Source: an uncultured Chloroflexia bacterium
Lineage (GTDB): Bacteria; Chloroflexota; Ktedonobacteria; Ktedonobacterales; JADMIN01
Reading direction: 5' to 3'
DNA length: 64,000 nucleotides
Assembly (NCBI GenBank): GCA_963712005.1
Contig: CAVQGK010000018.1
Span: 105,503-169,502, forward strand
The notes under the pieces were generated by a model that saw only the letters and a list, made by a program, of their open reading frames with translations, was not told the DNA's origin and searched no databases. Position 1 is the stretch's first letter. Each line of letters begins with the position of its first letter. Of the stretch, positions 5,832 to 63,240 are shown in pieces. The position numbers and the translations under genes are program-made.

Positions 5832-5896
5832 CGTAGGCTCAGCCGAATACGCGGACGAGAGAGGCCGACAGGTTCAGGAGGAAGGATAGCAACACC

Positions 5897-6103: not shown

Positions 6104-6134
6104 ACCACTACTCGTGACGTGATGGGGGAGCCAG

Positions 6135-6539
6135 ATGGCGGGTGAGAAGGGCGCGGATGAGCCGACCACCACTGAGCGCCCGCCCAGCGACCTCGTCCGT
6201 GACCATCTTGCGAACAAGCGCACTATGCTCGCCTGGGCGCGCACCGGCATCGCCGTGATAGCGCTGGGATTCGTAGTGGCGCGATTTGGTCTGCTCCTGC
6301 GCGAGTTGAGGCTAGCGCTGCCTCGCCATCTTCCTGAGGGCGTCTCCACGGTCTTCGGCACGGCGCTCGTCGTGATTGGCGGCATTCTGATCCTCCTTGC
6401 CGGAGTGGACTATCTGCGCACCGGGCAGGCTATCGACCAGCATGTCTATCGCTGGTCTCCTGTCCTGGAGTTTACCTTGAGCCTGTTGCTGCTGCTTGCG
6501 GCCATTGTGCTGGCTGTCTATCTGGTTCTGACCAGTTGA
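6135..6539 (+). CDS. DUF202 (YidH-like) membrane protein
   Basis: LANKRTMLAWARTGIAVIALGFVVARF motif plus three TM segments. Confidence 0.7.
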   Translation: MAGEKGADEPTTTERPPSDLVRDHLANKRTMLAWARTGIAVIALGFVVARFGLLLRELRLALPRHLPEGVSTVFGTALVVIGGILILLAGVDYLRTGQAIDQHVYRWSPVLEFTLSLLLLLAAIVLAVYLVLTS

Positions 6540-6772
6540 GGTCGGCGTAGCGGCCATACGGGCTGCCCGTGAGGTGAGCTATGCGCTCTCCCCGCGAGGG
6601 ATGGCGACACTATCCGGTGAAACCGGCCCGTAATACGTGGCAGCGGGAATAGACGCAACCTACACTTCCGTCACAGCGAGCGCGGATCCAGGCGGGCCGT
6701 TTACGCGAGTACGCGAGACAGACCCGTAGATGCGCGCCCTGATGGCTGTCAGGTTGGGAAGGAGTGTTGTCC

Positions 6773-7657: not shown

Positions 7658-7769
7658 CGTCTGACGCCTGGACGCATCACTTACCCAATGCCGAAGGGGG
7701 CGACGCCGCATGCGGTACTGACCCTCCTTCGGCGCCTGGTCTGTCCTCGCGGCGCGGCAAGCACGAGCA

Positions 7770-9536
7770 TTGGAGTTCGCCAGCATGCATGTCTCCGTAC
7801 GAGGCGCGCTCAGTCGCATCGAACAGGCAACACCGGGGTTTCAGGTTGCCCGTGGCTACCGGCGACGGTGGTTGCGGGCCGATCTGATCGCCGGTGTCAC
7901 CATCGTCGCGATTCTGATCCCGCAGGGGATCGCTTATAGCGATCTGGCTGGCGCCGCCCCGGTGGCAGGTCTCTATACCGCGTTTGCCGCCATGATCGCC
8001 TATGCGTTCTTCGCCAGCTCGCCGCAGCTTATGGTTGGCCCAGAATCGGGAAATGCCATCCTGGTCGCGGCCACCCTGGCGCCCCTGGTTGCCGGAAATT
8101 CATCCCGCTATGTGGCGCTGGCGGCCATGCTCGCGCTGATGGTGGGCACGCTGCTGCTCATCGGGGGAATAGCCCGGCTCGCCTTCATCGCCAACTTCCT
8201 CTCAAAGCCAATCCTCATCGGCTACATCAATGGCGCCTCGCTGATCATCATCGCCAGCCAGCTGGGAAAGCTCTTCGGCGTCAAGCTGACGAGCCAGAAC
8301 TTCTTCCCGGCATTGTGGGAGTTGGTGACGCACCTCAATCAGGCGCAATGGCTGACCTTTGGGATTGGGATCGTCTTGATCGCGCTTATTGTCGCGCTCC
8401 GGCGTTTCGCGCCAAAGGCGCCCTCCGCGTTGGTGGCGGTAATCCTGGCGACGCTCGCCTCGGCCTTCTTTCAGCTCGATACGCGCGGCGTGACCGTGCT
8501 TGGCCAGATTCCCGCCGGGCTGCCAATTCCCAGACTCCCGGCGATTAGCTTCGGTGATATTGGGTTGCTCCTGCCGGGAGCGTTCGGTCTGGCGCTGGTC
8601 ACCTTCGCGGATACGATCTTGACGGGCCGGGCATTCTCCACAAAGAACGGGTACGAGCTGGATGCTGGCCACGAGTTGATCGCGATTGGCGCCGCCAATA
8701 TCAGCTCAGGGTTCTTTCAGGGATTTACCTGCTCGGCCAGTCAGTCGCGGACGGCGGTCAACGATCAGGCAGGGGGCAAGACCCAGTTGACAGGCATCGT
8801 CGCCGCGATTCTGGTGGCGGTCTTCCTGCTGTTTCTCTCGCCACTGCTGCAGAATCTGCCGCAGGTAGCGCTGGCGGCGATTATTCTCGTCGCCGCGGTC
8901 AGCCTGATCGACATGGCGTCTATACGGCGGCTCTACCGCATCCGGCCCATCGAGGCGTATCTGGCGATGGCAACGACGGTCGGCGTGCTGGTCATGGGCA
9001 TCCTTCCCGGCCTCGCGGCGGCGGTCATCCTCGACCTGCTCATCGTCATCTGGATGCTCGCACGCCCGCATGATACGGTGTTGGGCGTTTTCAAGGGCAT
9101 CGATGGCTACCACGGCCTCAACCCGGATACCAATAACCAGACCGAGCCGGGGCTAATCGCGTACCGGTTCGACGCGCCGCTGTTTTTTTGCAACGCCGAC
9201 TACTTTCTGCACCAGGTACGGACGCTGACGCATGACCCCGACCCACCGTTGCATTGGTTCCTGCTCGACGCGGAAGGGATCCATACGCTAGACACCACAG
9301 CGGCGGAGATGCTCAGGACACTCATTCTCGAGCTTCAGCAGCAGGGCATCGTCTTTGTTATGGCCCGCGCGAACACCGCGCTCAGAGACATGCTCACCAG
9401 CAACGAACTGACCAGCCTCATCGGCCCCGAGCATTTCTTCCCCACTGTCACGACGGGTGTCAGGGCATACCGCGAGCACCTGGCCCACCAGGAGCGAGAA
9501 GAAATTGCCCCGTCCATGGAGCACGCGGACGATTGA
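7770..9536 (+). CDS. SulP family anion (sulfate) permease with C-terminal STAS domain
   Basis: 588-aa polytopic ORF (GVTIVAILIPQGIAYSDLAG; SQSRTAVN) with a STAS-like C-terminus (AYRFDAPLFFCNADYF). The start could be the ATG at 7785. Confidence 0.9.
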   Translation: MEFASMHVSVRGALSRIEQATPGFQVARGYRRRWLRADLIAGVTIVAILIPQGIAYSDLAGAAPVAGLYTAFAAMIAYAFFASSPQLMVGPESGNAILVAATLAPLVAGNSSRYVALAAMLALMVGTLLLIGGIARLAFIANFLSKPILIGYINGASLIIIASQLGKLFGVKLTSQNFFPALWELVTHLNQAQWLTFGIGIVLIALIVALRRFAPKAPSALVAVILATLASAFFQLDTRGVTVLGQIPAGLPIPRLPAISFGDIGLLLPGAFGLALVTFADTILTGRAFSTKNGYELDAGHELIAIGAANISSGFFQGFTCSASQSRTAVNDQAGGKTQLTGIVAAILVAVFLLFLSPLLQNLPQVALAAIILVAAVSLIDMASIRRLYRIRPIEAYLAMATTVGVLVMGILPGLAAAVILDLLIVIWMLARPHDTVLGVFKGIDGYHGLNPDTNNQTEPGLIAYRFDAPLFFCNADYFLHQVRTLTHDPDPPLHWFLLDAEGIHTLDTTAAEMLRTLILELQQQGIVFVMARANTALRDMLTSNELTSLIGPEHFFPTVTTGVRAYREHLAHQEREEIAPSMEHADD

Positions 9537-9543
9537 GCAAATG

Positions 9544-9720
9544 GGCTGGCGGCTAAAGCCGCGCCTACGGGCTCCGCCGCAAAGCCCGCCCTTCGGGCCG
9601 CTGCCGCTTCGCGCGCCCTTGCGCGCTTCTCGCCTCGTGCCTCGGCTCGCGCGGCTGCCCTGCGCGGGCTAGCAGAAACGGACTCGCGCGTCTTCTCCCG
9701 GCCTCACAGACGGCGCACTA
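9544..9720. repeat. GC-rich hairpin-forming intergenic repeat, related to 38921-39170
   Basis: ggctggcggctaaagccgcgcctacgggctccgccgcaaagcccgcc aligns block by block with 38923-38986. It contains the hairpins gcggct-aaa-gccgc and gcgcgc-cctt-gcgcgc. Confidence 0.5.
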
Positions 9721-32181: not shown

Positions 32182-35100
32182 CTATCTGGACACGGGCGGT
32201 CTATGCGGATTGTGCTTTACCGGTAGGTCAATGTAGAACACATTGGCGCCGCCTCTGCGTTTATAACCGGCCTGTCCCCCATGGGCAGACTCGACGATCC
32301 GGCGGACATGATCTAGTCCAATCCCCACTCCCATGCCGTTATCCACTGATCGTGCCTGGGTAAAGTGTCGCTCGAACATGGTTTGGCGCACATCCCGTGT
32401 AATAGGCGCCCCCCTGTTCTCAACTTCAACGCGGCCCCGACCCCGTCCTGTCATAGTCACCCTCACTGCAATCGTTGTATAGCGCTCCGCATGCTTGATG
32501 GCATTGTGCAGCAGCGCAAAAATGGCGACGGTGATGAGGTCACTAGAACACTCCACGACAACATCACGGTCAGACGTCTGGAAACTGATGGTGCGCTCGG
32601 TATCGCTGGCGAGAAACTCGGTACTCGCGACCAACCGTGTCAACAGTTCGCCAAGATTGACGGGCACACTCCGAATTTCTCGCCCACGCGTTTCATATTC
32701 GGCCAGTTCCTGGATGCAGTAGATAAAGGTTCGGAGTAACGCGAATGCGCTCGTCAACGACGAAAAGCTCTTGCTGTAGTCTGCCTGGCGCGCCTTGAGT
32801 AGAATGTCACGAATGCCGCCGTCCTCTAACTCCATGAGTATGGCGTCAACCTGGCTGGCAATCGAAGGTGGCCCATGCGAGAAATCCTCGATGAATTTCA
32901 ACTTCTCGTTATACATGCCACCGAGCCGGATAGATGTGACCATGATCTGCGCCAGAATCTCAAGGATATTGATATCGCGCCCGCTAAATGCCGCTTTGCT
33001 CCTGCTTTCTACGTTCAACACCCCCATAACGCGCTGGGGATCGCCTGGAGCGACGTCTGGATTCAGCAGGGGCACAGCCAACTCAGATTTTGTGTATCTG
33101 AAGGTTCTGGTAAAGATTGGCGCAAACGCGGGATCGTCGACATCGAGAACAACCAGTGGCGCCTGGGACTCCAGAACCCTGTTGACGATTCCCGGTTTGA
33201 TCTGCAAGGTTTCGTCGTGGGGCATTGGCGTGGGCTTCCCCTCCACGCCGATAAAAGAGCAATCTGGCTGGAGATTCCCGCGATTGTCCACGAACCAGAG
33301 GCTGGCATATCCGTCGGTCTGTTCCGTCAGATCAAGCGTCAATCTCATGATGTCATCGCGAATCTCGGGGTGAATTCGCTCTTTGATCTCGGTGAGGCTT
33401 CCCGTCATGACTCGATCAATGAGCTTGAGGATTGTACGGAGTTTCCTGCGATACAGGTAAAGATTGGCGGCGGAGATAATACTTGCCGCCTGCGATGCAT
33501 TGATCTCAACACGTTTGATCTGTGCTGGCGAATACATCCGGCGAACATCACTTTCCAGACAGATGACGCCCGTGATGCGATCACCACCAGGAATAGGGAC
33601 TACTAGCGCAGAGCGCATGGCGGCGCCAAGCATCGGCGCCTCCGCGACAATCTGCTCAAGCTCAATGCCATCCGAACTAAGCTCAGCCACGCGTTCCATC
33701 GGTGCGACGGATGTTGCGAAGTACTGGCGCACCTCGCCAGCGCTAAACGCCCGTGCCGCGATATTCGATGGCGCGCGATCAACTGGGATCTGAATGACGC
33801 TGTCGCTACTCGACGATGACGCTTTGGAAAACGTGGCCAACTCAACCAGTTCAACCGATTCCTTTTGCGGGACTTCAGCGGAACCGTCTGGGAGACGCAC
33901 TGCGGCAAGGATGACACCCTTCGATGAGTTTGTATATTCTGTCGCGACCTTCACCAGCTTTTGCAACAGTTCCCTGCGGCGGTGGCGAATCAGACTCAGA
34001 TTCTGGTTGTCCTGGTCTTGCCCTGACCTATCCAACCTCAACATGCTGGCGACGTCGTCGTTGATTTCGCGCAGTTGCTGCAGATTCGTCTGCGCCAGCC
34101 ACCCGCCTCGTATGACTTTGGCATGTTCGAGCGTGCGCGCCGCACAGCGGGCAAGCTCCTCAACCCGTTGCTGATCGCGATCGGTGAAGGCGTTCGGTTC
34201 AGTTGACACCATATCGATAACGCCAAGTACCTGCTTGCCCAGGAGGAGCGGAACCACCAGCTCTGACTGGATCGTTGGATCCTGCTCGAAGTAGATATCC
34301 CGGTACTTCTTGTCATGGACATCCGCTATGCACTTGGATTTACGATCCCGGCGCGCCCAGCCAGTGAAACCCTTCCCTTCCGGCCAGGACCAGACCTGAA
34401 TCATCTCTGGGGCGTAGTTGTAGGCTGCGTCCATAGTGATCGTAAATACGCCGTCACCGCAGAACGCGATAGCCGCTCTGGCGTCGGGCTGCCCGATCAC
34501 CTGTATGATTCGTCGGAGCAGTAACTTATAGAGCGCTGAGAGGCGTCGCGAGTCAAGCACGTTGGGGAACTGGGTCTCGAATCTGGCGCCAAAAGCGCTG
34601 AACGAGGTGGCGGACGCCCATGCTGATGTTGTGATATCCCGTAGACATGCCTCGGCGCTCGCGCGACATTCCGCGACGATCGGATCATCTTCAGTGAGGG
34701 TATTGGGTTGCGAGGTCTCGACGCTAACGACGCCAATGGGGCGACCTCGTCCATCCCGAATCGGTAAGGCCAGCGCACATGTTGACCCCATAATATTGGT
34801 CATGGGGTGACCTGGCTGATGGTTCTTGATATAGTATGTGTTATCTTTCACAATCGCCTGCCACGCCGCGACGGTGTTTCGCGCGTAATATCCCGGAAGC
34901 ACGTGAACGGTGGGGCTGGCAGCCCCCAGTGTGACGAGCGCGTCACTGTCACTGGTGAGTCCCAGGATTTCAACGACGATTCTCGTCGTTTTTTGCTCCT
35001 GGCTTTTGCCCCTGTCGGTGTCCTTCCCCTTTTTTCTCGCGTCTTCGCGGGTTCTCGCCCGCTGCTTCTCCCGCTCCTCCGCTAACGCCTTCGCGCACTT

Positions 35101-35664
35101 TTCCGCGAGCCGTTGAAATTCATTGAAAATCCCTGCCGAAGTGGCTGGAGTCCGGTCTGTGGCGTTGGCCAGCGTTATCTGGAAACGCGATTGCTCCCAG
35201 AGGACCGCCTGAGTGATCTGGTGCGCGAGAATGTTTATCCAGGGTAGGACGCTGGTCGTGAATTGCCGTGGCTTCTCGCTCCCGACGAAGATGGCTCCAG
35301 GACAGATATTGCCGTAGAGAAGAGGAATCACCAGCACAGATTGAAGGTGATGCGATTGATGTAACTGCAAATTGTCGAGCCGGAGGACGTTATCGGTATC
35401 TATCGCGCGAACGAGCAGATGATCAACCTCTGAAACCATGGATTCCGTCCAGGGTCCACCAAAGTAATTCTCCGGCCCGGGATGATTCGGAGCATCTTGC
35501 AGCCAGATTCTCACCAGCGTTTCAGGGTCACCAGTCAGGTGCGCGATTCCCCGCGCCAGATCATGCATTATCTCTTGAAACGGGACGCTTTCCATCATTC
35601 CTTTCGTGTGCTCGGACACTATACGTTCCAGCCGGAATTGGCGCGTGCCGCTCTGCATGGCCAT
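32182..35664 (-). CDS. Soluble multi-GAF sensor histidine kinase (1160 aa)
   Basis: No TM segment and several GAF-like blocks (e.g. SVLVIPLLYGNICPGAIFVGS; ALALPIRDGRGRPIGVVSVE; ELVVPLLLGKQVLGVIDMVS; ALVVPIPGGDRITGVICLES; ELAVPLL...VMGVLNVES). The C-terminal kinase region reads FSHGPPSIAS, LLHNAIKHA, GMGVGIGL. Confidence 0.85.
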   Translation of the reverse strand: MAMQSGTRQFRLERIVSEHTKGMMESVPFQEIMHDLARGIAHLTGDPETLVRIWLQDAPNHPGPENYFGGPWTESMVSEVDHLLVRAIDTDNVLRLDNLQLHQSHHLQSVLVIPLLYGNICPGAIFVGSEKPRQFTTSVLPWINILAHQITQAVLWEQSRFQITLANATDRTPATSAGIFNEFQRLAEKCAKALAEEREKQRARTREDARKKGKDTDRGKSQEQKTTRIVVEILGLTSDSDALVTLGAASPTVHVLPGYYARNTVAAWQAIVKDNTYYIKNHQPGHPMTNIMGSTCALALPIRDGRGRPIGVVSVETSQPNTLTEDDPIVAECRASAEACLRDITTSAWASATSFSAFGARFETQFPNVLDSRRLSALYKLLLRRIIQVIGQPDARAAIAFCGDGVFTITMDAAYNYAPEMIQVWSWPEGKGFTGWARRDRKSKCIADVHDKKYRDIYFEQDPTIQSELVVPLLLGKQVLGVIDMVSTEPNAFTDRDQQRVEELARCAARTLEHAKVIRGGWLAQTNLQQLREINDDVASMLRLDRSGQDQDNQNLSLIRHRRRELLQKLVKVATEYTNSSKGVILAAVRLPDGSAEVPQKESVELVELATFSKASSSSSDSVIQIPVDRAPSNIAARAFSAGEVRQYFATSVAPMERVAELSSDGIELEQIVAEAPMLGAAMRSALVVPIPGGDRITGVICLESDVRRMYSPAQIKRVEINASQAASIISAANLYLYRRKLRTILKLIDRVMTGSLTEIKERIHPEIRDDIMRLTLDLTEQTDGYASLWFVDNRGNLQPDCSFIGVEGKPTPMPHDETLQIKPGIVNRVLESQAPLVVLDVDDPAFAPIFTRTFRYTKSELAVPLLNPDVAPGDPQRVMGVLNVESRSKAAFSGRDINILEILAQIMVTSIRLGGMYNEKLKFIEDFSHGPPSIASQVDAILMELEDGGIRDILLKARQADYSKSFSSLTSAFALLRTFIYCIQELAEYETRGREIRSVPVNLGELLTRLVASTEFLASDTERTISFQTSDRDVVVECSSDLITVAIFALLHNAIKHAERYTTIAVRVTMTGRGRGRVEVENRGAPITRDVRQTMFERHFTQARSVDNGMGVGIGLDHVRRIVESAHGGQAGYKRRGGANVFYIDLPVKHNPHRPPVSR

Positions 35665-35837
35665 CTATTCCACCTTCGGTATACTTCTTCATGTAACAGT
35701 ACGTCAGTATATCTAGGGTTTGTGCGTCGCAGAGAATCGAGACGCCGGGAAAGTGGTCATTCAAACCAAGCGTTGCGCCCCGGCGCCGTTATCTTAGCAC
35801 AACATATGCTGTTTGCAACAGGGAACGCTTGCGAACT

Positions 35838-35886
35838 CTGAAGACGACAAATCGTCCCGCTCTCTAGTAGTGGAGCAGGGACGATT
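35838..35886 (-). terminator. Rho-independent-type terminator after gcvPB
   Basis: Minus strand: aatcgtccctgctc-cactactaga-gagcgggacgatt (13-bp stem, one bulge), followed by tgtcgtctt. Confidence 0.55.
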
Positions 35887-35916
35887 GAGATCGTGCAAGG
35901 ATGGATATAGCGGTCG

Positions 35917-37413
35917 CTATGCCCGCGACGCCGCAGTGGCCTCCGGTTCGCCTTCCGGCTGCCAGCGCAGGTTGGGCTTGCGCGCGGCAAGCGCCTCATC
36001 CAGCCGCCCAACGACGGTGATGTGGGGCGCCTCCAGGACTAACCCCGGCTGGCGCTCGGCCTCTTCGGCGATCTGCCGCATGATGGCGATGAACTCGTCG
36101 AGCGTTTCCTTCGTCTCCGTCTCGGTCGGCTCGATCATCAGCGCCTCGGGCACGATCAGCGGGAAGTAGTTGGTCGGCGGGTGGACACCGAAGTCCAGCA
36201 GCCGCTTGGAGATGTCCAGCGCGCGCACGCCCAGCGCCTTCTGGCGGTTGGCCGAGAAGACGAACTCGTGCATGCAGGTGCGGTCGAACGGCAGGTCGTA
36301 GTACTCCTGTAACGCCCGCATGACATAGTTGGCATTCAGCACCGCGCTATTGCTGACGTGGCGCAGCCCGTCCGGCCCGTTGCTGCGGAGGTAGGTGTAG
36401 GCGCGCACCAGCACCAGGAAGTTGCCCGCGTGGGCGCGTACGCGGCCAATCGAGAGCGGGCCAGCGTCCTCCCAGAAGTAGCCCTGGCGCCCCTTCGCGG
36501 GGAGCGGCCCTGGCAGGAACGGCACGAGATGCTTGGCGACGCCGATGGGGCCAGCGCCCGGCCCGCCCCCGCCGTGCGGTGTGCTGGCGGTCTTATGCAG
36601 GTTGAGGTGGACCACGTCGAAGCCCATATCGCCGGGCCGCGTGATGCCCAGAATCGCGTTGGCGTTCGCGCCGTCGTAGTAGAGTTGGCCGCCCACCTCA
36701 TGCACAAGCTTCGCGATCTCGACGATATTCTCATCGAAGACGCCGAGGGTATTGGGATTAGTCATCATCAGCGCGGCGATCTTGCCCTCGTGTGTGGCGA
36801 GCACCTGCTTGAGATGCTCCACATCCACGCCCCCGCGCGCATCCGACTTCAGCTCGACAGTCCGGTAGTCGGCCAGCGTCGCGCTCGCCGGATTGGTGCC
36901 ATGCGCGCCGTCGGGGATGAGCACGATATCACGGTGCGCCTCGCCGCGATGAACGTGGTATGCCTTGATAATCATCAGGCCGGTGATCTCGCCGTGCGCG
37001 CCCGCCGCTGGCTGCAACGTCACCCGCTCCATCCCGGCAATCTCGGCGAGATAGCCTTCCAGTTCGTAGAGCAACTGGATCGCGCCCTGGGTCATGCTCT
37101 CGTGCTCTAGCGGATGAATCCGCGCGAAGCCGGGCATGCCTGCCATCTCTTCGTTCACCTTGGGGTTGTACTTCATCGTGCACGACCCCAGCGGATAGAA
37201 GCCGGTATCCACGCCAAAGTTGCGCTGCGAGAGATGGGTGAAGTGGCGCACCACCTCGATCTCGCTCACCTCTGGCAGCGGCGCTGGCGCGGCGCGCAGC
37301 ATATCGCGCGGCACCAGTTGGTCCAGCGGTTTCGTCGGCACATCCATCGCGGGCAGCAGCGCGGCGCGGCGTCCGGGCGCGCCCATCTCGAAAATCAGTT
37401 TCTCAGTGCTCAT
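35917..37413 (-). CDS. gcvPB: Glycine dehydrogenase (aminomethyl-transferring) subunit 2
   Basis: 498 aa: [12 protein letters not shown]...[11 protein letters not shown]...[16 protein letters not shown] (PLP-lysine region). It overlaps gcvPA by 4 nt. Confidence 0.95.
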
Positions 37414-38765
37414 CGGTTCTCACCCGCCACTTCTTCCATCGCCGCTACCAGCGCCTCGATATCCTCGCGCGTGCGGGTCTCCGTCACACAGAAGAGCGCC
37501 GCGTTGCCCAGTTCGGGATAGTCGCGGCTCAGGTCGTAGCCGCCGCTGATGCCCTCATCGCGCAGCCCGGCGTTGAGTTGCTCCACGGGTATCGGGCAAC
37601 GCACCGCGAACTCGTCGAAGAATGGCCGCGCAAACAGCGGCTCGAAGCCCGGCAGCGCGCAGATGCGCTCCTGGGCGTAGTGGGCGCGTTGCAGGCACTG
37701 CTCGCCAAGCTCCTGAAAGCCCTGCTTGCCCAACGCGGCGAGGTAGATCGTCGCGGCGACCGCCAGCAGCGATTGATTGGTGCAGATATTCGAGGTGGCG
37801 CGCTCGCGGCGAATCTGCTGCTCGCGGGTCTGGAGCGTCAACACGTAGGCGTCCTGCCCGCGCGAATCGAGCGTCTTGCCCGCCAGCCGTCCCGGCAGCT
37901 TGCGCAGATACTCGTTGCGCGCGGCGAAGAGTCCCAGTGCTGGACCGCCGTAGCCCATCGGGTTGCCCAGGCTCAGCCCCTCCGCCGCGACGATATCGGC
38001 GCCATAGTCTCCCGGCGCGGCCAGCACGCCGAGCGAGGCTGGCTCGGTGATAGCGACGATGAACGACGCCTTGCCCGCATGCGTCATCTTCTCGATGCCG
38101 CGCACGTCTTCGAGCGCGCCGAGGAAATTCGGCTGCTGGATGATGACCGCTTTCGTTTCGGGTGTCATCGCCGCCTCAAGCGCGGCCACTGAGGTGATGC
38201 CATTGTCCAGGCCAATCTCGCGTACCGTGAAGCCGCGCGCGTTGGCGTAGGTCTGGAGCGTGGCGCGATACTGCGGATCGAGCGCCCGCGAGACGAGCAC
38301 CTCGCCGCGCCCCGAGGGACCAACCGCCATCAGCGCGCCTTCCACTACCGCCGTCGAGCCGTCGTAGAGCGAGGCGTTGGCGACATCCATGTTGGTGAGC
38401 TGGCAGACCATCGTCTGATACTCGTAGATCGCCTGGAGCATCCCCTGGCTGACCTCTGGCTGATAAGGCGTATACGAGGTCAGGAACTCGCTCCGCTTCA
38501 CCAGCGCGGGGACGAGGCTCGGCACGAAATGGTCGTACGTGCCCGCGCCTAGGAAGGAGATGTAGTGATCGAGATCGGCGTTCTGCTCGGCCATGCCCTG
38601 CATCAGCCGCCGCAGATCAGGCTCGGCGAGCGACGGGGGAAGCTCCAAGGGACGTTTGAGGCGCACCGCCTCCGGGATAGGCGTCAGCAGATCCTCGATG
38701 GAGGAGGCTCCAACCGTGCGCAGCATCTCCTGCTGCTCGGCGGAGGTGTTTGGCACATAGCTCAT
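37410..38765 (-). CDS. gcvPA: Glycine dehydrogenase subunit 1
   Basis: [15 protein letters not shown]...[13 protein letters not shown]...[24 protein letters not shown] at 38765. Confidence 0.95.
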
Positions 38766-38920
38766 GATGCGTTCGATTCCTCGCCAGCCCGCGATGGTTG
38801 GCCTGGCTCGGATGGCCAGCATCGCCGGGACGTAGTGGTGTCTTTGCAGGAGGTCGCCAATGAACTCCTGAGTAGCATTATATACTGTGACACCACACTG
38901 GCCTGACCAACGGGCAAGAA

Positions 38921-39170
38921 GAGGCTGGCGACTGAAGTCGCGCCTGAACGGCCTCGCTCGCGCTCCGCCACAAAGTCCGCCTGCGCGGACTACCCAGAGG
39001 CAACCTATTGGAACGCACGCCGGGCAAGCTGGAAGAAACCTGCCTACCCAGGTTGCAAAGGCGCACTCGCCCGTGGACGATCCCGTTGGGGCACGGTCTG
39101 GCAGTCCGCGACGGCAGACTTCGTGGCCGCAGGCCGTTCAGGCGCGGTTTTAACCGCCCGCGCACCGCCG
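38921..39170. repeat. MITE/REP-like nested palindromic element in the gcvH-gcvPA spacer
   Basis: Perfect 15-bp inverted repeat gcgcctgaacggcct (38940-38954) with aggccgttcaggcgc (39131-39145). Outer hairpins are gcgac-tgaa-gtcgc and gcggtt-tt-aaccgc. Inner repeats are agtccgc/gcggact and gcaacct/aggttgc. Confidence 0.6.
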
Positions 39171-39214
39171 CGCGGTATCCCCAGTAATTGCTAAAACCAC
39201 ATTAACCGCCAGCG

Positions 39215-39634
39215 CTAGTGGCCCGCCGTCTTGAGGAACTCGGTGTAGGCGGCGGCGTCCAACAGCTTATCAAGCTCGGCGGGATCGGAGAGCCGCACGC
39301 GCAGCATCCAGCCACCACCGTATGGCTCGCTGTTCACCAGTTCCGGCGTGGTCTGGAGGGCGCTGTTAACGGCGACGAGCGCTCCACTCACTGGGATGAA
39401 TAGCTCCGAGGTCGCCTTGACCGATTCGATATCGCCAAAGTGCTCATTCGCCTTGAAGTCGCGGCTACCCGCGTCATCCCAGGGAAGATCGAGGTAGACG
39501 ACATCGCCCAGCTCATCCTGAGCGTAGTCGGAGATGCCAATGGTCGCCTCGTCACCGTCGACGTGCACCCACTCGTGGGTCTGAGCAAAAAACATCGGTG
39601 TCGAAGACCCAGTGGAATTCGTACCTTGGCTCAT
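39215..39634 (-). CDS. gcvH: Glycine cleavage system H protein
   Basis: THEWVHVDGDEATIGISDYAQDELGDVVYLDLP...ESVKATSELFIPVSG (lipoyl-lysine motif ESVKA). RBS gggaga lies 8 nt before the ATG. Confidence 0.9.
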   Translation of the reverse strand: MSQGTNSTGSSTPMFFAQTHEWVHVDGDEATIGISDYAQDELGDVVYLDLPWDDAGSRDFKANEHFGDIESVKATSELFIPVSGALVAVNSALQTTPELVNSEPYGGGWMLRVRLSDPAELDKLLDAAAYTEFLKTAGH

Positions 39635-41222
39635 GTGTTTTCTCCCATAGATAGGCCCGTACTCCGAAGCGGTACAAAATCATCCGCTTCTCTTTCATCG
39701 ACGCGCCCTCCAGGTTGCGCACAGCCTGGGGAGCCGCTTCCTGGAATGACTTTATCACAGCCGCTTGTTCTTTGCGTTCGGCTTCCGTCGCAGTCAGTTC
39801 CTCCAACGTCCCGGTGAGAGTAACATACTGCTCGTGCGCTTCCTCGGCAAGCTGGACAAACCGCTCTCGCATATCGTCTGACTTGGCGCTTCCGACTGCC
39901 GCAAGGTAGCTGTCTTCCTGCTCCTTCGCCTGTTTGCGCGCAAGCTCGACCGCAGTGCGCTGGCTGGAGCCTTCCTCCTGCGCCTGGGCGACGTTGGCGA
40001 GGTAGACCTCGTACTGCGCTTGCAACCGCTCCGGGTGAGTAAGCTGCTCGATGAACCACGCCCAGCAGGCGTCATCCAGGGTAGACGACTTAATGAGGTT
40101 GACGCCGGGATAGCTACATGCGCCCTGCCTGTCCCCTGTGCCCGTGCGGACACGGTTGGCGCAGCGGTAGAAGTGGTAGCCACGTTTCTTCTCGTAGATC
40201 GTCGTGAGGCTGCCCTCACAGTAGCCGCAGCAGCCAAGCGGGTGGTGGAGCAACACGTCGCCCGCATGAGAGAGCCGCCGCGAAGACAACTCCTTGTTCT
40301 CAGTCAGGCGTTGCTGGGCGGTGTTGTACGCTTCCTCGCTCACCAGCGCAGGGCAGACATCCGGGCTGTACTCAAACCGATTGACATCGTCTGGCGCACG
40401 CTTGACCCGCCGCATCACGACACGCACCTCGCCGGTAACGGGGTGGATGACTGTCTTGGGAATGCGCGTCGTCTCCATGCCTACCATGTGACCGGTGTAC
40501 GACTGATCGCGGAGGATTTTGCGGATGCTGGTTGGTCCCCAGTGTTCGGAGCGGCGACTGGTGATTCTCCAGCCCTGAGACTGCTGATAGCGAGAAGGGG
40601 ACGGGATGCCGTCTCTGGTGAGCGCAAGACTGATTTGCCGCATGGTGTTCCCGGCCACATACTCCGCAAAGATACGGCGGACAATCGGCGTAGAGTTGGG
40701 GTCAGGGCGAAACTTCTCCTTGCGGTCGTCCGCGAACATATAGCCGTACTTGGGGCAGTTCATCGCAGGCAGCTTGCCGGAATGAACACGCGCCTTCTTG
40801 CCGCCTGCTGTTCTTGCCCTCACGTTGTTCAGTTCTGTCTCAGCTGCGAAGATGATGCCGTTCCGCACGAACTCACCAACTGCGCCCTCCGGGAGTTCTT
40901 CGGTTGCCGAGAAGACCTCGACACCGACCTCACGGAACTGGAAGATTGCTACTGTACACTGCACCTGAATGCGTGAGAAGCGATCAAACCGTCCAACGCA
41001 AACGATGTCGAACTTACCTTTACGGGCCTCACCCAGCATCTCCTGGAAGACCGGACGATTCAGTGTATAGGACTTGCCGCCTGGGTCGGAATACTTGGCC
41101 ACAATTACGTGTCCTTGCCGTTCCGCCCAGGCTTCAATGTCGTTATGCTGATTCTCGATGCTGTAGTTCTTGTCCTCCTCGCCCGGACTCGACCGGCGAA
41201 GATAAGCTGCGACTCGCGCCAT
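39552..41222 (-). CDS. Large serine recombinase (integrase-type)
   Basis: 556 aa: N-terminal resolvase domain (AAYLRRSSPGEED...GRFDRFSR), a recombinase domain, a zinc ribbon (CCGYCEGSL...YRCANR) and a coiled coil. The 3' end overlaps gcvH by 83 nt. Confidence 0.9.
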   Translation of the reverse strand: MARVAAYLRRSSPGEEDKNYSIENQHNDIEAWAERQGHVIVAKYSDPGGKSYTLNRPVFQEMLGEARKGKFDIVCVGRFDRFSRIQVQCTVAIFQFREVGVEVFSATEELPEGAVGEFVRNGIIFAAETELNNVRARTAGGKKARVHSGKLPAMNCPKYGYMFADDRKEKFRPDPNSTPIVRRIFAEYVAGNTMRQISLALTRDGIPSPSRYQQSQGWRITSRRSEHWGPTSIRKILRDQSYTGHMVGMETTRIPKTVIHPVTGEVRVVMRRVKRAPDDVNRFEYSPDVCPALVSEEAYNTAQQRLTENKELSSRRLSHAGDVLLHHPLGCCGYCEGSLTTIYEKKRGYHFYRCANRVRTGTGDRQGACSYPGVNLIKSSTLDDACWAWFIEQLTHPERLQAQYEVYLANVAQAQEEGSSQRTAVELARKQAKEQEDSYLAAVGSAKSDDMRERFVQLAEEAHEQYVTLTGTLEELTATEAERKEQAAVIKSFQEAAPQAVRNLEGASMKEKRMILYRFGVRAYLWEKTHEPRYEFHWVFDTDVFCSDPRVGARRR

Positions 41223-41855
41223 TTGTGTTTCCTCCAGCTATGGGTGTGTGTGTCCTGCTGGAAAGTATACCCAAGTAATCTTCCACAGTCAAGTTGCTAT
41301 CCGAGAATAGCCAGACTGCGAAGGCACGATACCAAGGGTCGTCGAACATATCAGGCACGCTTTCTCGGTAGGGCAAAGGGAGCGTCCTCGTCCAACTCTG
41401 CCTGAAGGGTAGCAATGTGACGGCGGGCGGTCTTGGTCGAGCAGCCGACTCGGCGGGCCAGCTCGTCCGCTTTCATCCCACGACGCCACTCCAGACGGCA
41501 CTGCTCAAGCAGGGGAGCGGTACGGCCACGCAGAGGAAGCGGCGGGGGAGCGATGACCTGGGGCGCAGCGGACTCGCCACGCGCCAAGCGGGTGATCGTG
41601 GACTGGATAGAAGCCAGGATGTTGCCCGTTTTCTTCTCGTTCGCAGCCGTAGCCACGGTGACGATAGCCTCGGACATGTCCACCATAGTCCCGTCAAGCT
41701 CGGTGATGGCCTGCTTGCGCTGCCGGGTCAGCACCTTGAGGAAGGCTTCCAGAGTCTTGTGGGCCTCGCCCTGGAGCTTCTGGCTGATCCGTCTTGGCCA
41801 TGGTGTTCTGCTCCTCTGGCGCCCGCGCGCCCGCTCACATCACGACGTGTGAAAA
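39635..41855 (-). mobile_element. Putative minimal integrative cassette (serine recombinase plus HTH protein) between gcvT and gcvH
   Basis: Two foreign genes fill the gcvT-gcvH spacer exactly. The boundaries are inferred from the flanking gcv stop and start only; the att cores were not resolved. Confidence 0.45.
41351..41734 (-). CDS. Small HTH protein (possible recombination directionality or regulatory factor); likely 5' frameshift
   Basis: C-terminal HTH MKADELARRVGCSTKTARRHIATLQ. A good RBS+ATG (aggagcagaacaccATG, 41801) is one frame off. Deleting one G at ~41788 gives MAKTISQKLQGEAHKTLEAFLKVLTRQRK... Confidence 0.55.
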   Translation of the reverse strand: MLTRQRKQAITELDGTMVDMSEAIVTVATAANEKKTGNILASIQSTITRLARGESAAPQVIAPPPLPLRGRTAPLLEQCRLEWRRGMKADELARRVGCSTKTARRHIATLQAELDEDAPFALPRKRA

Positions 41856-42992
41856 TTACTTTGCGCGCTTATAGAACGGCAGCGCGACGATGACCGCGGG
41901 AACTGCCTTACCGCGAATCTCGATGGCAATCTCGGAGCCGGGGACGGCGTGCTCCGGTGGGACGTAGCCCATGCCAATCGCTTTGCCAATGGTAGGGCCG
42001 ACGGTGCCGCTGGTCAGCTCACCAATGGCCGCGCCCTCGCGCAGAATGGGATATCCGGCGCGCGGAACGCCCCCGCCGCGCAGCTCGATCCCCACACGCT
42101 TGCGCGGCAGCCCCTGCTCCTTCTGCGCCAGCAGCGCATCGCGCCCGATGAAGTCGTGGCCCTTCTCCAACTTGACCGACCAGCCAAGGCCAGCCTCCAG
42201 CGGCGTGATCTGCTCAGTCAGTTCGTGGCCATAGAGACAGAAGCCCGCCTCCAGCCGGAGCGTATCACGCGCGCCCAGCCCGGCCGGGAGCAGCCCCGCT
42301 GAGCCGCCCGCCGCCAGCAGCGCACGCCAGAGCGCCACCACATCGCCACTGGCGCAGCACAACTCGAAGCCATCCTCGCCGGTATAGCCGGTGCGCAAGA
42401 TCAGACAGGATATGCCCGCGACGGTCCCTTCGGCAAAGTGGTAGTAGACGACGGTGTTGAGGTCGGTGTTGGTCAGGGAGCTCAGGATGTCGCTGGCGCG
42501 CGGGCCTTGCAGCGCGAGAAGCCCCGTCTCATCAGAGATGTTGGTCAGCGTGACATCGGCGCGTCCTGCCGCCTGCCGCGTGAACCAGTCCCAGTCCTTC
42601 TCCGTCGTATCCGCGTTGACCACGGCCATATAGCGCGTGTCGCCGAAGCGGTAGATCGTGAGATCGTCCAGCGTGCCGCCCTGCTCATTGCAAATCTGGG
42701 TGTAGAGCGCCTGCCCGTCGGTCAGCCGGGCGACGTTATTGGGGACGAGACCCTGCAAGAAATCGAGCGCCCCCGGACCCTCAACGCGAAACTCGCCCAT
42801 ATGCGAGACATCGAACATGCCCGCGCGCTCGCGGACGGCGCGGTGTTCTTCGAGAATGCCGCTATACTGAACGGGCATTTCCCAGCCGCTGAACTCGACG
42901 AGACGCGCGCCCAACGCGCGATGCTCCTCGTAGAGCGGGGTACGCTTGAGCCGCGGCGTCGCGGCATCGGTCGAAGATGTATCTGCGCTCAT
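41856..42992 (-). CDS. gcvT: Glycine cleavage system aminomethyltransferase T
   Basis: 378 aa: LKRTPLYEEHRALGARLVEFSGWEMPVQYSGILEEHRAVRERAGMFDVSHMGEF. Confidence 0.95.
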   Translation of the reverse strand: MSADTSSTDAATPRLKRTPLYEEHRALGARLVEFSGWEMPVQYSGILEEHRAVRERAGMFDVSHMGEFRVEGPGALDFLQGLVPNNVARLTDGQALYTQICNEQGGTLDDLTIYRFGDTRYMAVVNADTTEKDWDWFTRQAAGRADVTLTNISDETGLLALQGPRASDILSSLTNTDLNTVVYYHFAEGTVAGISCLILRTGYTGEDGFELCCASGDVVALWRALLAAGGSAGLLPAGLGARDTLRLEAGFCLYGHELTEQITPLEAGLGWSVKLEKGHDFIGRDALLAQKEQGLPRKRVGIELRGGGVPRAGYPILREGAAIGELTSGTVGPTIGKAIGMGYVPPEHAVPGSEIAIEIRGKAVPAVIVALPFYKRAK

Positions 42993-43150
42993 GCTGCTCG
43001 GCTACCTTCTGGGCAACGTCCGGGATTCATCCCGGCACTGGCTCACGCACGCCGTTGCGCAATGGGCCGTTGGGTTGCCGTTCCACATTCTAGCCGGGTA
43101 GCGTATCGTTTGTCCAGCAGGGGGTGAGGTCAGCCGCGCCTCAATACGCA

Positions 43151-44743
43151 TCAATAGATGAAGCTGACGCCGGAACGGACATAGGCGAAGCGGTAGCTCA
43201 CACGCCCCCAACCACCGCCATTCCAGTAAAAGTTCATCTCCGAGACGAGGAACCAGCCACCAGGGTAGACCTTCTCGACATGGGCGACGTGGCCCGCGCC
43301 ACCCGCGCCCTCGACACCCGGCTGGAAGACAACCGTTGCTCCGGCGCGTGGCGTATGCCCGACCCGATAGCCGCGCGACGCCGCGCCCGCCGCCCAGTAG
43401 CGCGCGTTGCCCATGCGGCGCAGATTCTCATCCTGCCGCTTATTTTGCGCCCACCAGGTGCACTGGCCAAACGCCCACCAGTAGAAGCCATTCGCCGGGC
43501 GGTTCATCTTGAAGGATGGATGGCCGGGGACGTACATATAGGCCCACCTGGGCGGCCAGGGACGGACCGGCGCGGGCGAGATGCCGGTATTCGAGGAGGG
43601 CGACGAGTTGCCAGACGGCGCGCCGCCGCTACCCGAAGAATTCCCCGCGGGCAGTCCGGCGCTCCCCGGCGCTTTGACGCCAGGGCCAGCGCCGCCGCCA
43701 AGACCGAGCACCGCGCCCGCCTGCGTATCCCACGGCCCGCTTGGATCGCCGGTCGCGTTGTTGCTGGCCGTCTGCGCCGCCAGCAGCCCAAAGGGGAGTG
43801 TTGCTGAGGCGAGGGGATTGGTCTCCGCGAGCACGCCGACCACCAGGGCCAGCGTCATCAGGCAGGCGACGAATCCCGCGACCAGGCTGCGTCGTCCGTG
43901 CCGTCGCGGCTGGAGCCAGATCGGCGTCGGCGCGAGCTTACCCGCAGGCACGACGGTGACAGGCATACGCGGCATCGTATCGGCATCCATGACCGCCATA
44001 TCAGTCGGCAGGTAGACGGTGGGCGCCTCATCGGCGGCGACCCGCGCATCCTCGATGACAGCCTCCAGCGCGTTCAAGATCATCGTCTGGCGCGTCACCA
44101 GCGTGGTATCTTCCGGGCGCACTGGCCGCGCGGTGGATGGCCGCCGTCGGCGATTCGGTCCGCCGTAAACGCCTGACATACCGGAGATACCGGAGTTAGC
44201 CGGGCCATCGTCGGGGCGCGCAGGCATGATGATCGTGTCTGGTGGCAGCGTCGTACCCATCCAGGGCGGGGACGAGCCAGGTGGTGTGCCTGGTTTCTTC
44301 GTGGGCGCGTAGGGCGCTTCAGGCGCCGCCGACGCGGCACGCAGGCCGCCATTTGTCTGGCGCGGTCTGCTGATGGGCGTCTCGGTGTCGCTGGTGAGGC
44401 GGGGTATGTTGGTGAGCCATGGCGCGGTGGAGCGTCGCGGCTGGCTCACTGGCCCATGCTCGTCGGGACGCACCCGTGGGATGCGGTTGGTCGGCTCATG
44501 CGTCGCCCGCATGCGTTGTCTTGCGGTTGGTGTATCCGCTCCCCATCCCGTCTCCCACTCTGTCCACTGCGTATCCGGTCTCGCTCCGGCAGATGGCTTG
44601 CGTCCGCGCTTGTGCTGGCCTGCCACGGCATCCCTCCCTGCTTCCCAATCGCATCCACCCTGTACAGGGGAGTATGGCCAGGAGCGGCTGAGTTTCGCGA
44701 CAAGCGAGCGCGAAATTCGGGCGGTCAGGGAGGCGTTAGACAA
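43151..44743 (-). CDS. CHAP-domain protein with long disordered N-region and one TM helix
   Basis: The C-terminus has GQCTWWAQNK (Cys) ... GHVAHVEKV (His) ... SEMNFYWNGGGWGRVSYRFAYVRSGVSFIY, after a Pro/Arg-rich N-half and a TM helix (LVAGFVACLMTLALVVGVLA). The start is uncertain. Confidence 0.75.
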   Translation of the reverse strand: MSNASLTARISRSLVAKLSRSWPYSPVQGGCDWEAGRDAVAGQHKRGRKPSAGARPDTQWTEWETGWGADTPTARQRMRATHEPTNRIPRVRPDEHGPVSQPRRSTAPWLTNIPRLTSDTETPISRPRQTNGGLRAASAAPEAPYAPTKKPGTPPGSSPPWMGTTLPPDTIIMPARPDDGPANSGISGMSGVYGGPNRRRRPSTARPVRPEDTTLVTRQTMILNALEAVIEDARVAADEAPTVYLPTDMAVMDADTMPRMPVTVVPAGKLAPTPIWLQPRRHGRRSLVAGFVACLMTLALVVGVLAETNPLASATLPFGLLAAQTASNNATGDPSGPWDTQAGAVLGLGGGAGPGVKAPGSAGLPAGNSSGSGGAPSGNSSPSSNTGISPAPVRPWPPRWAYMYVPGHPSFKMNRPANGFYWWAFGQCTWWAQNKRQDENLRRMGNARYWAAGAASRGYRVGHTPRAGATVVFQPGVEGAGGAGHVAHVEKVYPGGWFLVSEMNFYWNGGGWGRVSYRFAYVRSGVSFIY

Positions 44744-44816
44744 GAACCACAGCGGGATGGAGGTGGTATTTGTGTGGCTACCCAGATAGGCTATGCCGCT
44801 TCGCAGCAGAGAGCGT

Positions 44817-45560
44817 TTAATCCTTCAGAAACCGTTCGACCCAGGCTACCATGCGCTGCCGAGCCGTTTCCCACAACTCTGGCGAAAGGCTATGACCTGC
44901 ACCGGGATACTCCAGGTAGCATAGGCGCTCCGGGGCGGTGGCGTATAACGGTGTGAGTTGCTCGTGGAAGGTGCGGATATAGCGGGCTGGCACGGCCTCA
45001 TCCTTCTCCGCTGCCTGGGAGAACAGCGCGACCGGGAAGAAGCGCTCAACATGGCGGTGCGGACTCTCAGGCAAGGGCAGCTCCCATTCGGGAGAGCCAA
45101 GGATAGGGGTCGCTACGCACAGGCGAGGTTCATCAACAATCGCCGCATAGGTGATCTCGCCACCCATGGAGACTCCTCCTATGCCCAGGCGCCTGGGCCG
45201 CGCCCATCCACGAGCGTACAGTTCGTCTATGATCAGGGGCACTTCACCTGCCGTTTGGCGCACAATCGCAAGGTAGTCGGCCTCGGTGGCTTCTGGTCCC
45301 CCTGCCCAGCGCTCATCATTGAACATCTCAGCGAAATGGGGGAAGCGGCGCTGCCCATGGCCAACAGCGTCCAGGCCGATCACGAGAAACCCGGCCTGTG
45401 CGAGGCTCACGAGATGAGCCTCGATCTTCTCTTTGCTTCCGCCAAAGCCATGATAGAACAACATCGTGCCCTGCTCGGCACAGGGCTGGATCGCATCCTG
45501 GAAGAAGAGCAATGCGGGAACCGAGGCAATGGTGGTCACTTCTTGCGTGAGGGGCATCAT
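44817..45560 (-). CDS. Alpha/beta hydrolase (dienelactone hydrolase / S9-like)
   Basis: Nucleophile elbow GGVSMGG, then HGFGGSKE, and a C-terminal GAGHS. Confidence 0.8.
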   Translation of the reverse strand: MMPLTQEVTTIASVPALLFFQDAIQPCAEQGTMLFYHGFGGSKEKIEAHLVSLAQAGFLVIGLDAVGHGQRRFPHFAEMFNDERWAGGPEATEADYLAIVRQTAGEVPLIIDELYARGWARPRRLGIGGVSMGGEITYAAIVDEPRLCVATPILGSPEWELPLPESPHRHVERFFPVALFSQAAEKDEAVPARYIRTFHEQLTPLYATAPERLCYLEYPGAGHSLSPELWETARQRMVAWVERFLKD

Positions 45561-61897: not shown

Positions 61898-63240
61898 CTA
61901 CGGCGCGCAGACGTATTTGTCCGTCGTATCACTGGCGGGAATCTGGCTCAGCAGCGGCGGTTTGGTACAGTTGCTGCCGTTCCACTTTACTGCGGCGCTA
62001 TCGAAGATTGTCGGCTGCATCGTCGAGATGTGCGCTGATGTGCTGGCGTCGTAATTCAGCCCGAAGGCGAAGGTGTACGTGCCCGGCGCGGTTGGAGGCG
62101 TCATCCTGATAGCAATGAAGAGCATCTGGCCGGGGCCGAGGCTCACTGGCAACGGCGGCGCGTTTCCAATATTGCTACTGTCCTGAATCGCCGTTACCTG
62201 TGCCCCCGATGTCGCGTTCGCGGCGAAGTCCACCCGGAGCCATTCATCAGCGGCAAGTCCACCGCCGCAGCCACCACCAGCCACACCGTTTGGCCGCTGA
62301 TAATACTGGTCACAGAACATGTAGGTGTTAAGCGGCCCGCTATAGGCCGTGAACGCCGCGATACGGACGGTCAGGCTTCGAATCACATGGCTGGTGGTGT
62401 TCGAGGTGTTGCAGACCGTCAGGTCGTACCAGGGCTGTGGGTTGACCGGTGGATTCGGCGGATTGGGCAAGTTATTCGGCAGTTGATAGGGCTTCGCCTG
62501 ATCGAGATTGGCCGGTAGCTCATTGGCGGGATACGCATTCGCGAAACCCACCTGACTCACCTTCAGGTCGCCAATCTGCACGTAGCTGGTCTGGCCAGAG
62601 GTGTCTGTGCTACATGGGTGCCCAGAGTTCACAACACCGGTTGTGGTGTTCTGCGTCGGCTCAGGCGTCGCCGTTGGTTGTATGGTCGCTGTCGGTAGTA
62701 TCGGTCGCGGTGGGCGTGCTGCTCTGCGCCGGGCCGCTGGATGGCCGCCCGAAGACAGCGAAGAGTGTCGCCGCCAGGCCAATCAGCAACACCACCGCAA
62801 TGGTCGCCAGCACCGGGCGCTTGCGCGTGTTCGGTGTATGCTGCGGTGGCCGTCGGTCTGATCGCGGCAGGTTGGACATTTCGTAGGTTGTCTCATCCCA
62901 GTCATTGAACATAGAGTTATCTCTCTGACCTCCCCATGATGCCTGGGACTGATGATGATTCATCCGCGCGGGGGATGTCGATGGAACGCGCGTGACGGCG
63001 ATCTGCACGAGATCATCGGCGGCGGCCGCGGTCCGCGCGAAATGGCCCATGTAGGTGTAAGCGCGGCATCCAGCCGGTCGTAGGCCGCCAGTTGCGCCTG
63101 GCAGTAGCCGCAGGTGGCGAGATGGGCGCGCAGAGACGCTCTTCGGCGCGAGTGAGCGTTCCCTGCCGGAATTGCGGCAATAGCTCGGCATACCTGGCGC
63201 ATTCAGGGCCGGACGGATGCCGCATGTTGAACGTGTTCAT
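61898..63240 (-). pseudogene. Second anti-sigma factor, three frameshifts
   Basis: The pieces 63013..63240, 62960..63202, 62661..63191 and 61898..62782 chain as MNTFNMRHPSGPECARYAELLP...|HLATCGYCQAQLAAYDRLDAAL|...LLIGLAATLFAVF...|...PTATPEPTQNTTTG.... Frame changes lie near 63125, 63060 and 62690. Confidence 0.7.

Follow-up and report, generated by a model that had tools for sequence, protein, structure and literature searches.

A probable serine-integrase prophage remnant in the 5′ codons of gcvH in a Ktedonobacterales bacterium

In a 64,000-nt stretch of contig CAVQGK010000018.1 from an uncultured Ktedonobacterales bacterium (hereafter the window, to whose positions all coordinates refer), the glycine-cleavage genes gcvT and gcvH are separated by a 2.2-kb block carrying a gene for a 556-aa large serine recombinase (int), with all open reading frames (ORFs) of the locus on the minus strand. 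This block is in all likelihood the right-end remnant of a Ktedonobacterales serine-integrase prophage that had integrated in the 5′ codons of gcvH. An earlier note, made from the sequence alone, had placed the block in the gcvT–gcvH spacer and had read it either as a cargo-less integrative element with two attachment (att) sites, consisting of the integrase and a small helix-turn-helix (HTH) protein as candidate directionality factor, or as a domesticated DNA switch that uncouples gcvT from gcvH-PA-PB. The ORFs on which that reading was built were confirmed at their minus-strand coordinates from the ORF list.

The foreign nature of the block is seen from its relatives. A GcvT scan with one genome per species yielded 80 loci, the best of which are Ktedonobacterales/Chloroflexota metagenome-assembled genomes at 84%, 70% and lower identity. 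In every one of these loci where gcvH was found, it follows gcvT after 0–560 nt (about 250 nt or less except in L020), and neither a recombinase nor the HTH ORF stands between the two genes in any of the 80. A metagenome scan for a 23-mer, ATGGCCAAGACGGATCAGCCAGA, gave six contigs, all with gcvT–gcvH uninterrupted. Since gcvT and gcvH are adjacent in every relative examined, the 2.2 kb is an insertion. The normal adjacency of the two cistrons, stated in the earlier note, is thus borne out by the empty sites of the 80 genome relatives and six metagenome contigs, and the case which that note named as refuting an insertion, i.e., the same two genes in all relatives with no empty site, was not encountered, empty sites being found throughout the relatives.

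The position of the insertion follows from the start of gcvH. In the nearest relative (L002), gcvH opens with ATGGCCAAGACGGATCAGCCAGAGGAT... (MAKTDQPEDLRYAETHEW), with GCGCCAGAGGAGCAGA before it. The window has, right after gcvT, the same ribosome-binding site (RBS) as L002 and, at 41801–41779, the identical 23-mer ATGGCCAAGACGGATCAGCCAGA, which is the gcvH start in L002 and in L082–L087. Thus, the RBS and AACACCATG beside gcvT represent the stranded native gcvH start, because they are identical to the gcvH start of the relatives. The native gcvT–gcvH spacer with the original gcvH RBS GAGGAGCAGAACACC and a palindrome occupies 41802–41855 (matched to L087), and the orphaned 5′ stump of the original gcvH, an ATG plus 20 nt (MAKTDQP-E), occupies 41779–41801. 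The 59 nt at 41779–41837 are 100% identical to the empty-site contig L087, and an 80-kb contig (L083), about 92% identical on both sides, has 12 nt in place of window positions 39588–41778. The 2.2-kb block is therefore best described as foreign DNA inserted within the first codons of gcvH, after its native RBS, start and 23 nt, and not in the gcvT–gcvH spacer where the earlier note had located it. A candidate for the empty-site attB is provided by about 50 bp around ACGCACGA in L126 or L083.

The 556-aa protein (39552–41222) is predicted to be a phage-type large serine integrase, full length according to Pfam, PHROG and a family alignment. The resolvase N-domain and recombinase domain named in the earlier note were recovered by Pfam (Resolvase PF00239, E 3.6e-24; Recombinase PF07508, E 4.4e-15). 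The Zn_ribbon_recom model (PF13408) scored 19.3 bits, below its cutoff of 25.3, and four cysteines (C332, C335, C354 and C369) are invariant in the integrase family alignment. The window integrase has every invariant residue of this 19-member alignment, including Ser11 of the catalytic-region motif YLRRS, and in its N-terminal catalytic domain it can be aligned with the integrases of TP901-1 and phiC31. The PHROG comparison assigned it to the integrase group phrog_95 (E 6e-85), and its identity to characterised serine integrases, those of mycobacteriophages included, is about 25%. Its homologues number about 60, the closest of which (52–55% identity) lie in phage contigs, and two of them (P0001 and P0007) sit in clearly phage contigs with many small ORFs. 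In contigs L090 and L091, the int homologue has as neighbours genes for a holin (PF09682/phrog_608), a head protein (Gp80/phrog_240) and a PDDEXK nuclease. A scan of IMG/VR with the family alignment returned only distant integrases, at ≤40% identity and mostly over the catalytic domain.

Upstream of int, the small protein with a C-terminal HTH that the earlier note had singled out is present in the ORF list as a 127-aa ORF with a GTG start (41351–41734), and its C-terminal match to HTH_11 scores 27.1 bits (cutoff 25). However, this ORF lies within the 3′ fragment of a phage gene (41351–41778, about 141 codons plus the stop). The gene directly upstream of int in the phages encodes 298–300 aa, with hydrophobic segments towards the N-terminus and a weak HTH at the C-terminus, and the window fragment matches only residues ~158–298 of the ~298-aa product, with 51% identity (blastp, E 2e-43) to L090 and 47% (E 6e-37) to L091. 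The homology begins at QKLQGEAHKTLEAFL (phage: EKLSEEAHRTLEAFL), in the first codons past the native 23-mer. Collinearity with the phage contigs at the DNA level begins at 41766, the reading frame is open up to 41778, and only an internal GTG or ATG is available to the fragment as a start. The ~298-aa gene is full length (298–300 aa) in L088–L091 and frameshifted in L123/L124, with residues 27–298 present, while L125 retains its last ~120 codons at a contig end and the short contig L092 only its last 27 codons, 96% identical to those of the window. The presumed small HTH protein is thus, as judged from these alignments, the 3′ half of a ~298-aa phage gene that precedes int in the phages and not a complete gene, and it no longer stands as a candidate directionality factor in its own right.

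Between gcvT and gcvH exactly two same-strand genes had been counted. Both are there, but a third, conserved small ORF (41146–41349; 68 aa; MFDDPWYRAFAVWLFSDSNLTVEDY..., MFDDPWYRAFAVWLFSD...), kept in the phage contigs, overlaps the start of int. Every member of the family has a corresponding ORF between the ~298-aa gene and int, namely L090 (1870–2070), L091 (from 4882), L092 (from 105), L123 (from 3631) and L125 (from 400), with the consensus M.DD.W.RAFA.WLFSD.(N/D)LT..DY. Its substitutions are distributed over the three codon positions as 153:98:210, which is a coding-like pattern. The small ORF also contains a sigma70-like promoter, TTGACT-17-TATACT (41264–41292), which in the family reads TTGAC(A/T)-17-TAtACT. 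No Pfam match was obtained for the 68-aa product, which could be a small regulator or the directionality factor of these phages. The window segment as a whole is collinear with the order "gene fragment, small ORF, int" of L090, L091 and L123, and no homologues of other phage genes were found in the 64-kb window.

The right border of the block was mapped by comparing the end of int with that of L090. Aligned without gaps, GATGTTTTTTGCTCAGACCCAC of the window and GATGAATTAAGTTCAGACCCAC, the 3′ end of int in L090, agree at 17 of 22 positions; native gcvH at this place (GATCTCAAATATGC(T/G)(C/G)AAACGCAC) requires a 2-nt gap and matches at about 50%. The phage-like sequence extends to CAGACCCAC, with native gcvH next, and host identity resumes at CACGAGTGGGTG, from where the window is 92% identical to L083. 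The phage (P) arm of this site, defined by its match to the L090 int 3′ end, covers 39575–39650, and the crossover zone CCCAC (39575–39579) falls in or beside the conserved T-H-E-W codons. The right border is thus, to all appearances, a genuine attR, and the suspicion of the earlier note that the 3′ end of the recombinase gene abuts an att junction proved correct, as did its observation that this ORF runs 83 nt beyond the gcvH ATG (39634) in another frame to end at 39552. The last ~8 int codons and the stop come from host gcvH sequence.

The phage arm supplies gcvH with GGGAG (39642–39646), a 7-nt interval, an ATG (39632–39634) and 20 codons, MSQGTNSTGSSTPMFFAQTH, in the gcvH frame, and these codons overlap the int codons W-E-K-T-H-E-P...S-D-P in another frame. 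The rebuilt GcvH (39215–39634; Pfam GCV_H, E 5.5e-36, with the lipoyl-lysine motif intact) therefore reads MSQGTNSTGSSTPMFFAQTH followed by EWVHVDGDEATIG..., with codons 1–20 phage-derived and host sequence from E21-W22 onward. This chimeric protein is 94% identical to the native homologue P0064 over 91% of its length, and the phage-type N-terminus was found in none of the 120 best GcvH homologues, all of which have the native 135-aa form (MAKTDQP...). Translation of gcvH would start from the phage-supplied ATG at 39634 (MSQGTN...), the alternative being an ATG at 39595 (MFFAQ...).

The int–gcvH junction was found again in the Logan contig L001 (run ERR11594399), in which the segment "fragment 3′ end, int, gcvH" is identical to the window and which may derive from the same sequencing data, although this is not established, and independently in a Joint Genome Institute (JGI) contig (sample 3300045391), whose protein P0185 shares 97% amino acid identity with the C-terminal 244 aa of the integrase and is overlapped by a GCV_H gene. 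On account of this recurrence, the junction can be taken as real. The integrase tail of P0185 is longer than that of the window owing to a synonymous change in gcvH, showing that the tail downstream of the crossover is incidental. A separate observation concerns P0172, a GcvH homologue on a 551-nt contig of the European Nucleotide Archive (ENA), whose first ~35 residues MAKTEAGFSTRCIHVGQEPEQLTGAVGVPIYATSTY are fused at the AQDELGD motif. These residues presumably resemble the N-terminus of a Cys/Met-metabolism enzyme dependent on pyridoxal phosphate, and P0172 is either an assembly chimera or another rearrangement of the gcvH 5′ end.

The left border is of a different kind. At 41779|41778, nt 23 of native gcvH is followed directly by the phage gene from about codon 158 on, and the stranded ATG at 41801 has become the start of an out-of-frame ORF of 35 codons. 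Because native gcvH nt 23 abuts the middle of a conserved phage gene, this border appears to be a deletion joint rather than attL. Native gcvH nt 24–45 (~22 nt) were found at neither junction and nowhere else in the window. Conservative serine recombination leaves the whole attB shared between attL and attR; two borders that both lack these ~22 nt of native gcvH cannot be explained by conservative site-specific recombination. No direct repeats or shared core flanking the insert were found, and an "attB" rebuilt from the mapped borders was out of frame. Alignment with uninterrupted relatives, by which both attL and attR were to have been defined, hence defined attR and left the other border without an att site.

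From these borders a course of events can be proposed, the order of which we infer. A temperate phage of a Ktedonobacterales host would have integrated by means of its large serine integrase into an attB in the 5′ end of gcvH, crossing over at the codons of the conserved Thr-His-Glu-Trp stretch. The phage module would have had the order ~298-aa HTH/membrane gene, small ORF with promoter, int, and attP within the int 3′ end. Upon integration, the native gcvH RBS, ATG and first ~16 codons would have stayed by gcvT at attL, the int 3′ end would have been placed before the remaining gcvH at attR, and the Shine–Dalgarno sequence, ATG and 20 codons in the other frame of the phage arm would have reconstituted gcvH with a new N-terminus. 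A single later deletion, with one end at nt 24 of the gcvH stump and the other at codon ~158 of the 298-aa gene, would then have taken away the remaining B arm together with the attL core and the greater part of the prophage (the only long related phage contig measures 49 kb), and the 2.2 kb left over would comprise the truncated gene, the small ORF with its promoter, the intact int and attR. With attL gone, such a remnant cannot excise, with or without a directionality factor.

Several points weigh against this history. The crossover is resolved only to about 5–10 nt, for the left joint the 666-kb contig of the window is the sole source, and the translation and transcription of gcvH in the present arrangement are deduced. 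A full-length prophage in gcvH was not found, so that attL and the P′ arm of this phage were not recovered. The closest phage attP (L090) belongs to an integrase that is only 55% identical, and with its P arm gcvH would not regain a start, for which reason a shared gcvH target is not proven. In addition, int is fully intact, being open over 244 codons in the 97%-identical lineage, which is unexpected in an old fossil. The intactness of int could reflect either a recent deletion or a retained function.

Retained function is the core of another explanation, considered unlikely, according to which the phage lineage evolved the int 3′ end as a second-frame RBS, start and N-terminus for gcvH, and the host kept the intact integrase, promoter and attR as indispensable expression signals of gcvH-gcvPA-gcvPB, while the occupied attB may protect against related phages. 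A version in which selection would keep a domesticated remnant, with int, its promoter and attR serving as promoter, RBS and start of gcvH-gcvPA-gcvPB uncoupled from gcvT, or in which an occupied, destroyed attB would block lysogeny by related phages, is judged quite improbable. It is consistent with the full-length int bearing all family-invariant residues, the 244 codons of int that are open in a second, 97%-identical lineage sharing the junction, the conserved sigma70-like promoter upstream of int, the absence of a terminator-like site on the minus strand from gcvT to gcvPA, and the gcvH RBS and ATG inside int. However, the gcvH start needs only the last ~80 nt of int, an intact ORF is also expected after a recent deletion, and the second lineage (P0185) was compared as protein only. 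If the remnant were retained in this way, part of the glycine-cleavage operon would have been rewired under a phage-derived promoter.

The proposal that the block is a complete minimal 2.2-kb integrative element, with integrase, HTH directionality factor, attL, attR and an excisable circle, draws on the two compact same-strand genes, the empty sites in relatives, the intact int and the RBS/ATG-like motif at both borders. The GGAG...AACAC(C)ATG motif of the earlier note is indeed present at both junctions, but it is not an att core repeat, the "left" copy being the native gcvH start and the other falling in the int codons W-E-K-T-H-E-P. Moreover, the left border cuts the conserved ~298-aa phage gene mid-way, the ~22 nt of native gcvH missing at both junctions cannot result from conservative serine recombination, no shared core or flanking repeat exists, and the mapped borders give neither a circle nor an empty site in frame, all of which makes a cargo-less element with two att sites very unlikely. 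A reversible or developmental switch, including the DNA switch suggested for uncoupling gcvT from gcvH-PA-PB, is likewise implausible, since attL is absent and the phage arm has already restored gcvH. Some Ktedonobacteria differentiate and form spores, and a large serine recombinase interrupting a housekeeping operon recalls developmentally excised elements of the skin/SpoIVCA or heterocyst XisF type. The window, however, lacks an attL, its gcvH has been made whole by the phage arm and is not split, so that excision would gain nothing, and the integrase has its closest relatives in phage genomes, which leaves developmental excision in a sporulating host with hardly any likelihood. An assembly chimera, in which the left junction would be an artefact joining gcvT-side and prophage reads, is suggested by the occurrence of the 41779|41778 joint only in the 666-kb contig of the window and by the resemblance of a 10-nt stretch at the gcvH start to the phage gene (TGGCCAAGAC in L090, GCCAAGACGG in L091). 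However, the adjacency of fragment and int recurs in L001 and the int–gcvH junction in L001 and, independently, the P0185 JGI contig, the 10-mer similarity is at chance level, and the collapse of a ~40-kb prophage would require a longer repeat; an artefact of this type is accordingly rated a slim prospect.

Some narrower candidates were tried and rejected. A crossover placed where the 23-mer ends (at a GA or CA dinucleotide) failed when attB and attP were rebuilt, with respect to both frames and symmetry, and the phage homology was then found. An HTH gene spanning attP, whose 5′ end would have been swapped with that of gcvH, gave a rebuilt circle ORF in frame, but the phage homologue is ~298 aa long and lies upstream of int. 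The 10-nt similarity (TGGCCAAGAC, GCCAAGACGG), considered as a recombination substrate or a captured host segment, was not above chance against shuffles. No similarity was seen between a 126/135-aa ORF downstream of phage int and the HTH ORF, in a comparison that was flawed by the use of a wrong-frame window ORF and by searching the 126-aa protein against other loci rather than the window.

Upstream of the insertion lies the host gene gcvT (41856–42992; Pfam GCV_T, E 1e-101, plus GCV_T_C), an aminomethyltransferase gene whose DNA is 84–92% identical to that of Ktedonobacterales relatives, and downstream of gcvH follow gcvPA (37410–38822) and gcvPB (35917–37413), both matching Pfam GDC-P. The palindrome that had been pointed out after the gcvT stop is present (TCACA-N8-TGTGA, 41834–41851). 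It lies in the native spacer outside the phage-derived DNA, arises from a 9-nt difference CGTCGTGAT versus L087, is followed by no T-run and is not kept in relatives. A search with Rfam over 35000–45000 revealed no glycine riboswitch or other RNA family at E ≤ 0.01. Because no intrinsic-terminator-like site occurs on the minus strand between gcvT and gcvPA and promoter-like sites are present at 43087–43116 (upstream of gcvT) and 41264–41292 (upstream of int), gcvH-PA-PB may be transcribed by read-through from gcvT, from the conserved int promoter or from both.

Between gcvH and gcvPA, the window contains ~390 nt of non-coding sequence (38823–39214) without an Rfam match. In L083 (~92% identical), the corresponding spacer (5804–9555) holds a 3.7-kb opposite-strand cluster encoding an extracytoplasmic function (ECF) sigma factor, a putative anti-sigma membrane protein, an ATP-binding cassette (ABC)-2 permease and an ABC ATPase, and the gap is likewise enlarged in L004 and L007. 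The gcvH–gcvPA spacer thus seems to be a variable spot in the host lineage. Directly upstream of gcvT, 43151–44743 (minus strand) encodes a 530-aa protein that ends in a CHAP domain and also has an extended low-complexity region rich in Pro, Gly and Ser. This protein appears to be host-encoded and not prophage-derived, since L086 aligns over most of the region (window 41860–44494).

The related contigs give a view of the wider phage group. Other members of the family are likewise located at gene ends. In L123/L124, int overlaps or adjoins a 213-aa Aminotran_5 ORF by tilS. In L092, int of P0016 (46% identical) runs at its 3′ end into that of an ABC-transporter ATPase gene of convergent orientation, while the end of the 298-aa gene before it is 96% identical to the window fragment, which suggests mosaic phages with a common upstream module and different integrases and targets. 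L092 comes from run ERR11594399, as does L001, so that a second integrase of the family is present in the same sample. The module is degraded in L123 (2866–5365) and L124, with the 298-aa gene split in two frames and a DDE transposase nearby in L124, and a 308-aa ORF upstream of the degraded module in L123 matches window positions 61907–62590 (tblastn, 33% over 247 aa, E 5e-23). In L121 (2639–7671), the P0008 integrase (50% identical) ends a ~5-kb block with HTH_17 (excisionase-like), AAA_25 and small ORFs, flanked by host cytochrome-oxidase assembly genes. In contrast to the window remnant, this block looks like a genuine small integrative element.

For the gcvT–gcvH locus, the analysis corrects an attractive reading, as neither a minimal element of integrase plus directionality factor nor a DNA switch is present there. 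It also draws attention to a little-known and poorly sampled group of temperate phages of the Ktedonobacterales (Chloroflexota) that share a module of 298-aa HTH gene, small ORF and serine integrase. The 5′ codons of gcvH would be the integration target of a serine-integrase phage and thus a previously undescribed attB, and the locus offers a clean case in which a target gene receives a new 5′ end from a phage arm, encoded in an alternative reading frame of int. The empty-site attB and the P arm could be the starting point of an attB/attP pair for a new orthogonal serine integrase, once an intact phage yields the P′ arm. In the literature, nothing specific was found on an attB in gcvH or on Ktedonobacteria prophages.

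Compared with known systems, the window integrase shares the resolvase and recombinase domains, and probably the zinc ribbon, with the phiC31, Bxb1, TP901-1, A118 and SPbeta SprA integrases, and the locus shares with phage large serine integrases in general a phage-borne int, an attP beside or inside the int 3′ end and a short site in a host protein gene. Unlike the characterised integrases, to which it is ~25% identical, it has its attB in the 5′ codons of gcvH, and only attR survives. Elements such as B. subtilis skin/SpoIVCA, SPbeta/SprA in spsM, Anabaena fdxN/XisF and A118 in comK also place a serine-recombinase element in a host gene or operon; these intervening or active-lysogeny elements, however, keep both att sites and restore the gene on excision, whereas in the window attL is gone and the gene is whole. 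Where attP rebuilds the end of a target gene, as at tRNA 3′ ends and the termini of protein genes, lysogeny leaves the gene active, as in the window; in contrast to those cases, the window arm replaces a 5′ end (RBS, ATG and 20 codons) with sequence from an alternative int frame that is non-homologous to the native N-terminus. Prophage remnants with int and one att site are common. The window resembles such cryptic or "grounded" prophages, in which int and one att are kept, the other att and nearly all phage genes are deleted, and the remainder is fixed and vertically inherited. It differs from the typical ones in being unusually small, with a single clean joint and a deletion that ends in a host-gene stump, and in that its retained arm is functionally needed, supplying the start of a host gene. 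The remnant itself is thus of a known kind, and its points of interest are the attB in the 5′ end of gcvH, the dual-frame arm and the poorly sampled phage group.

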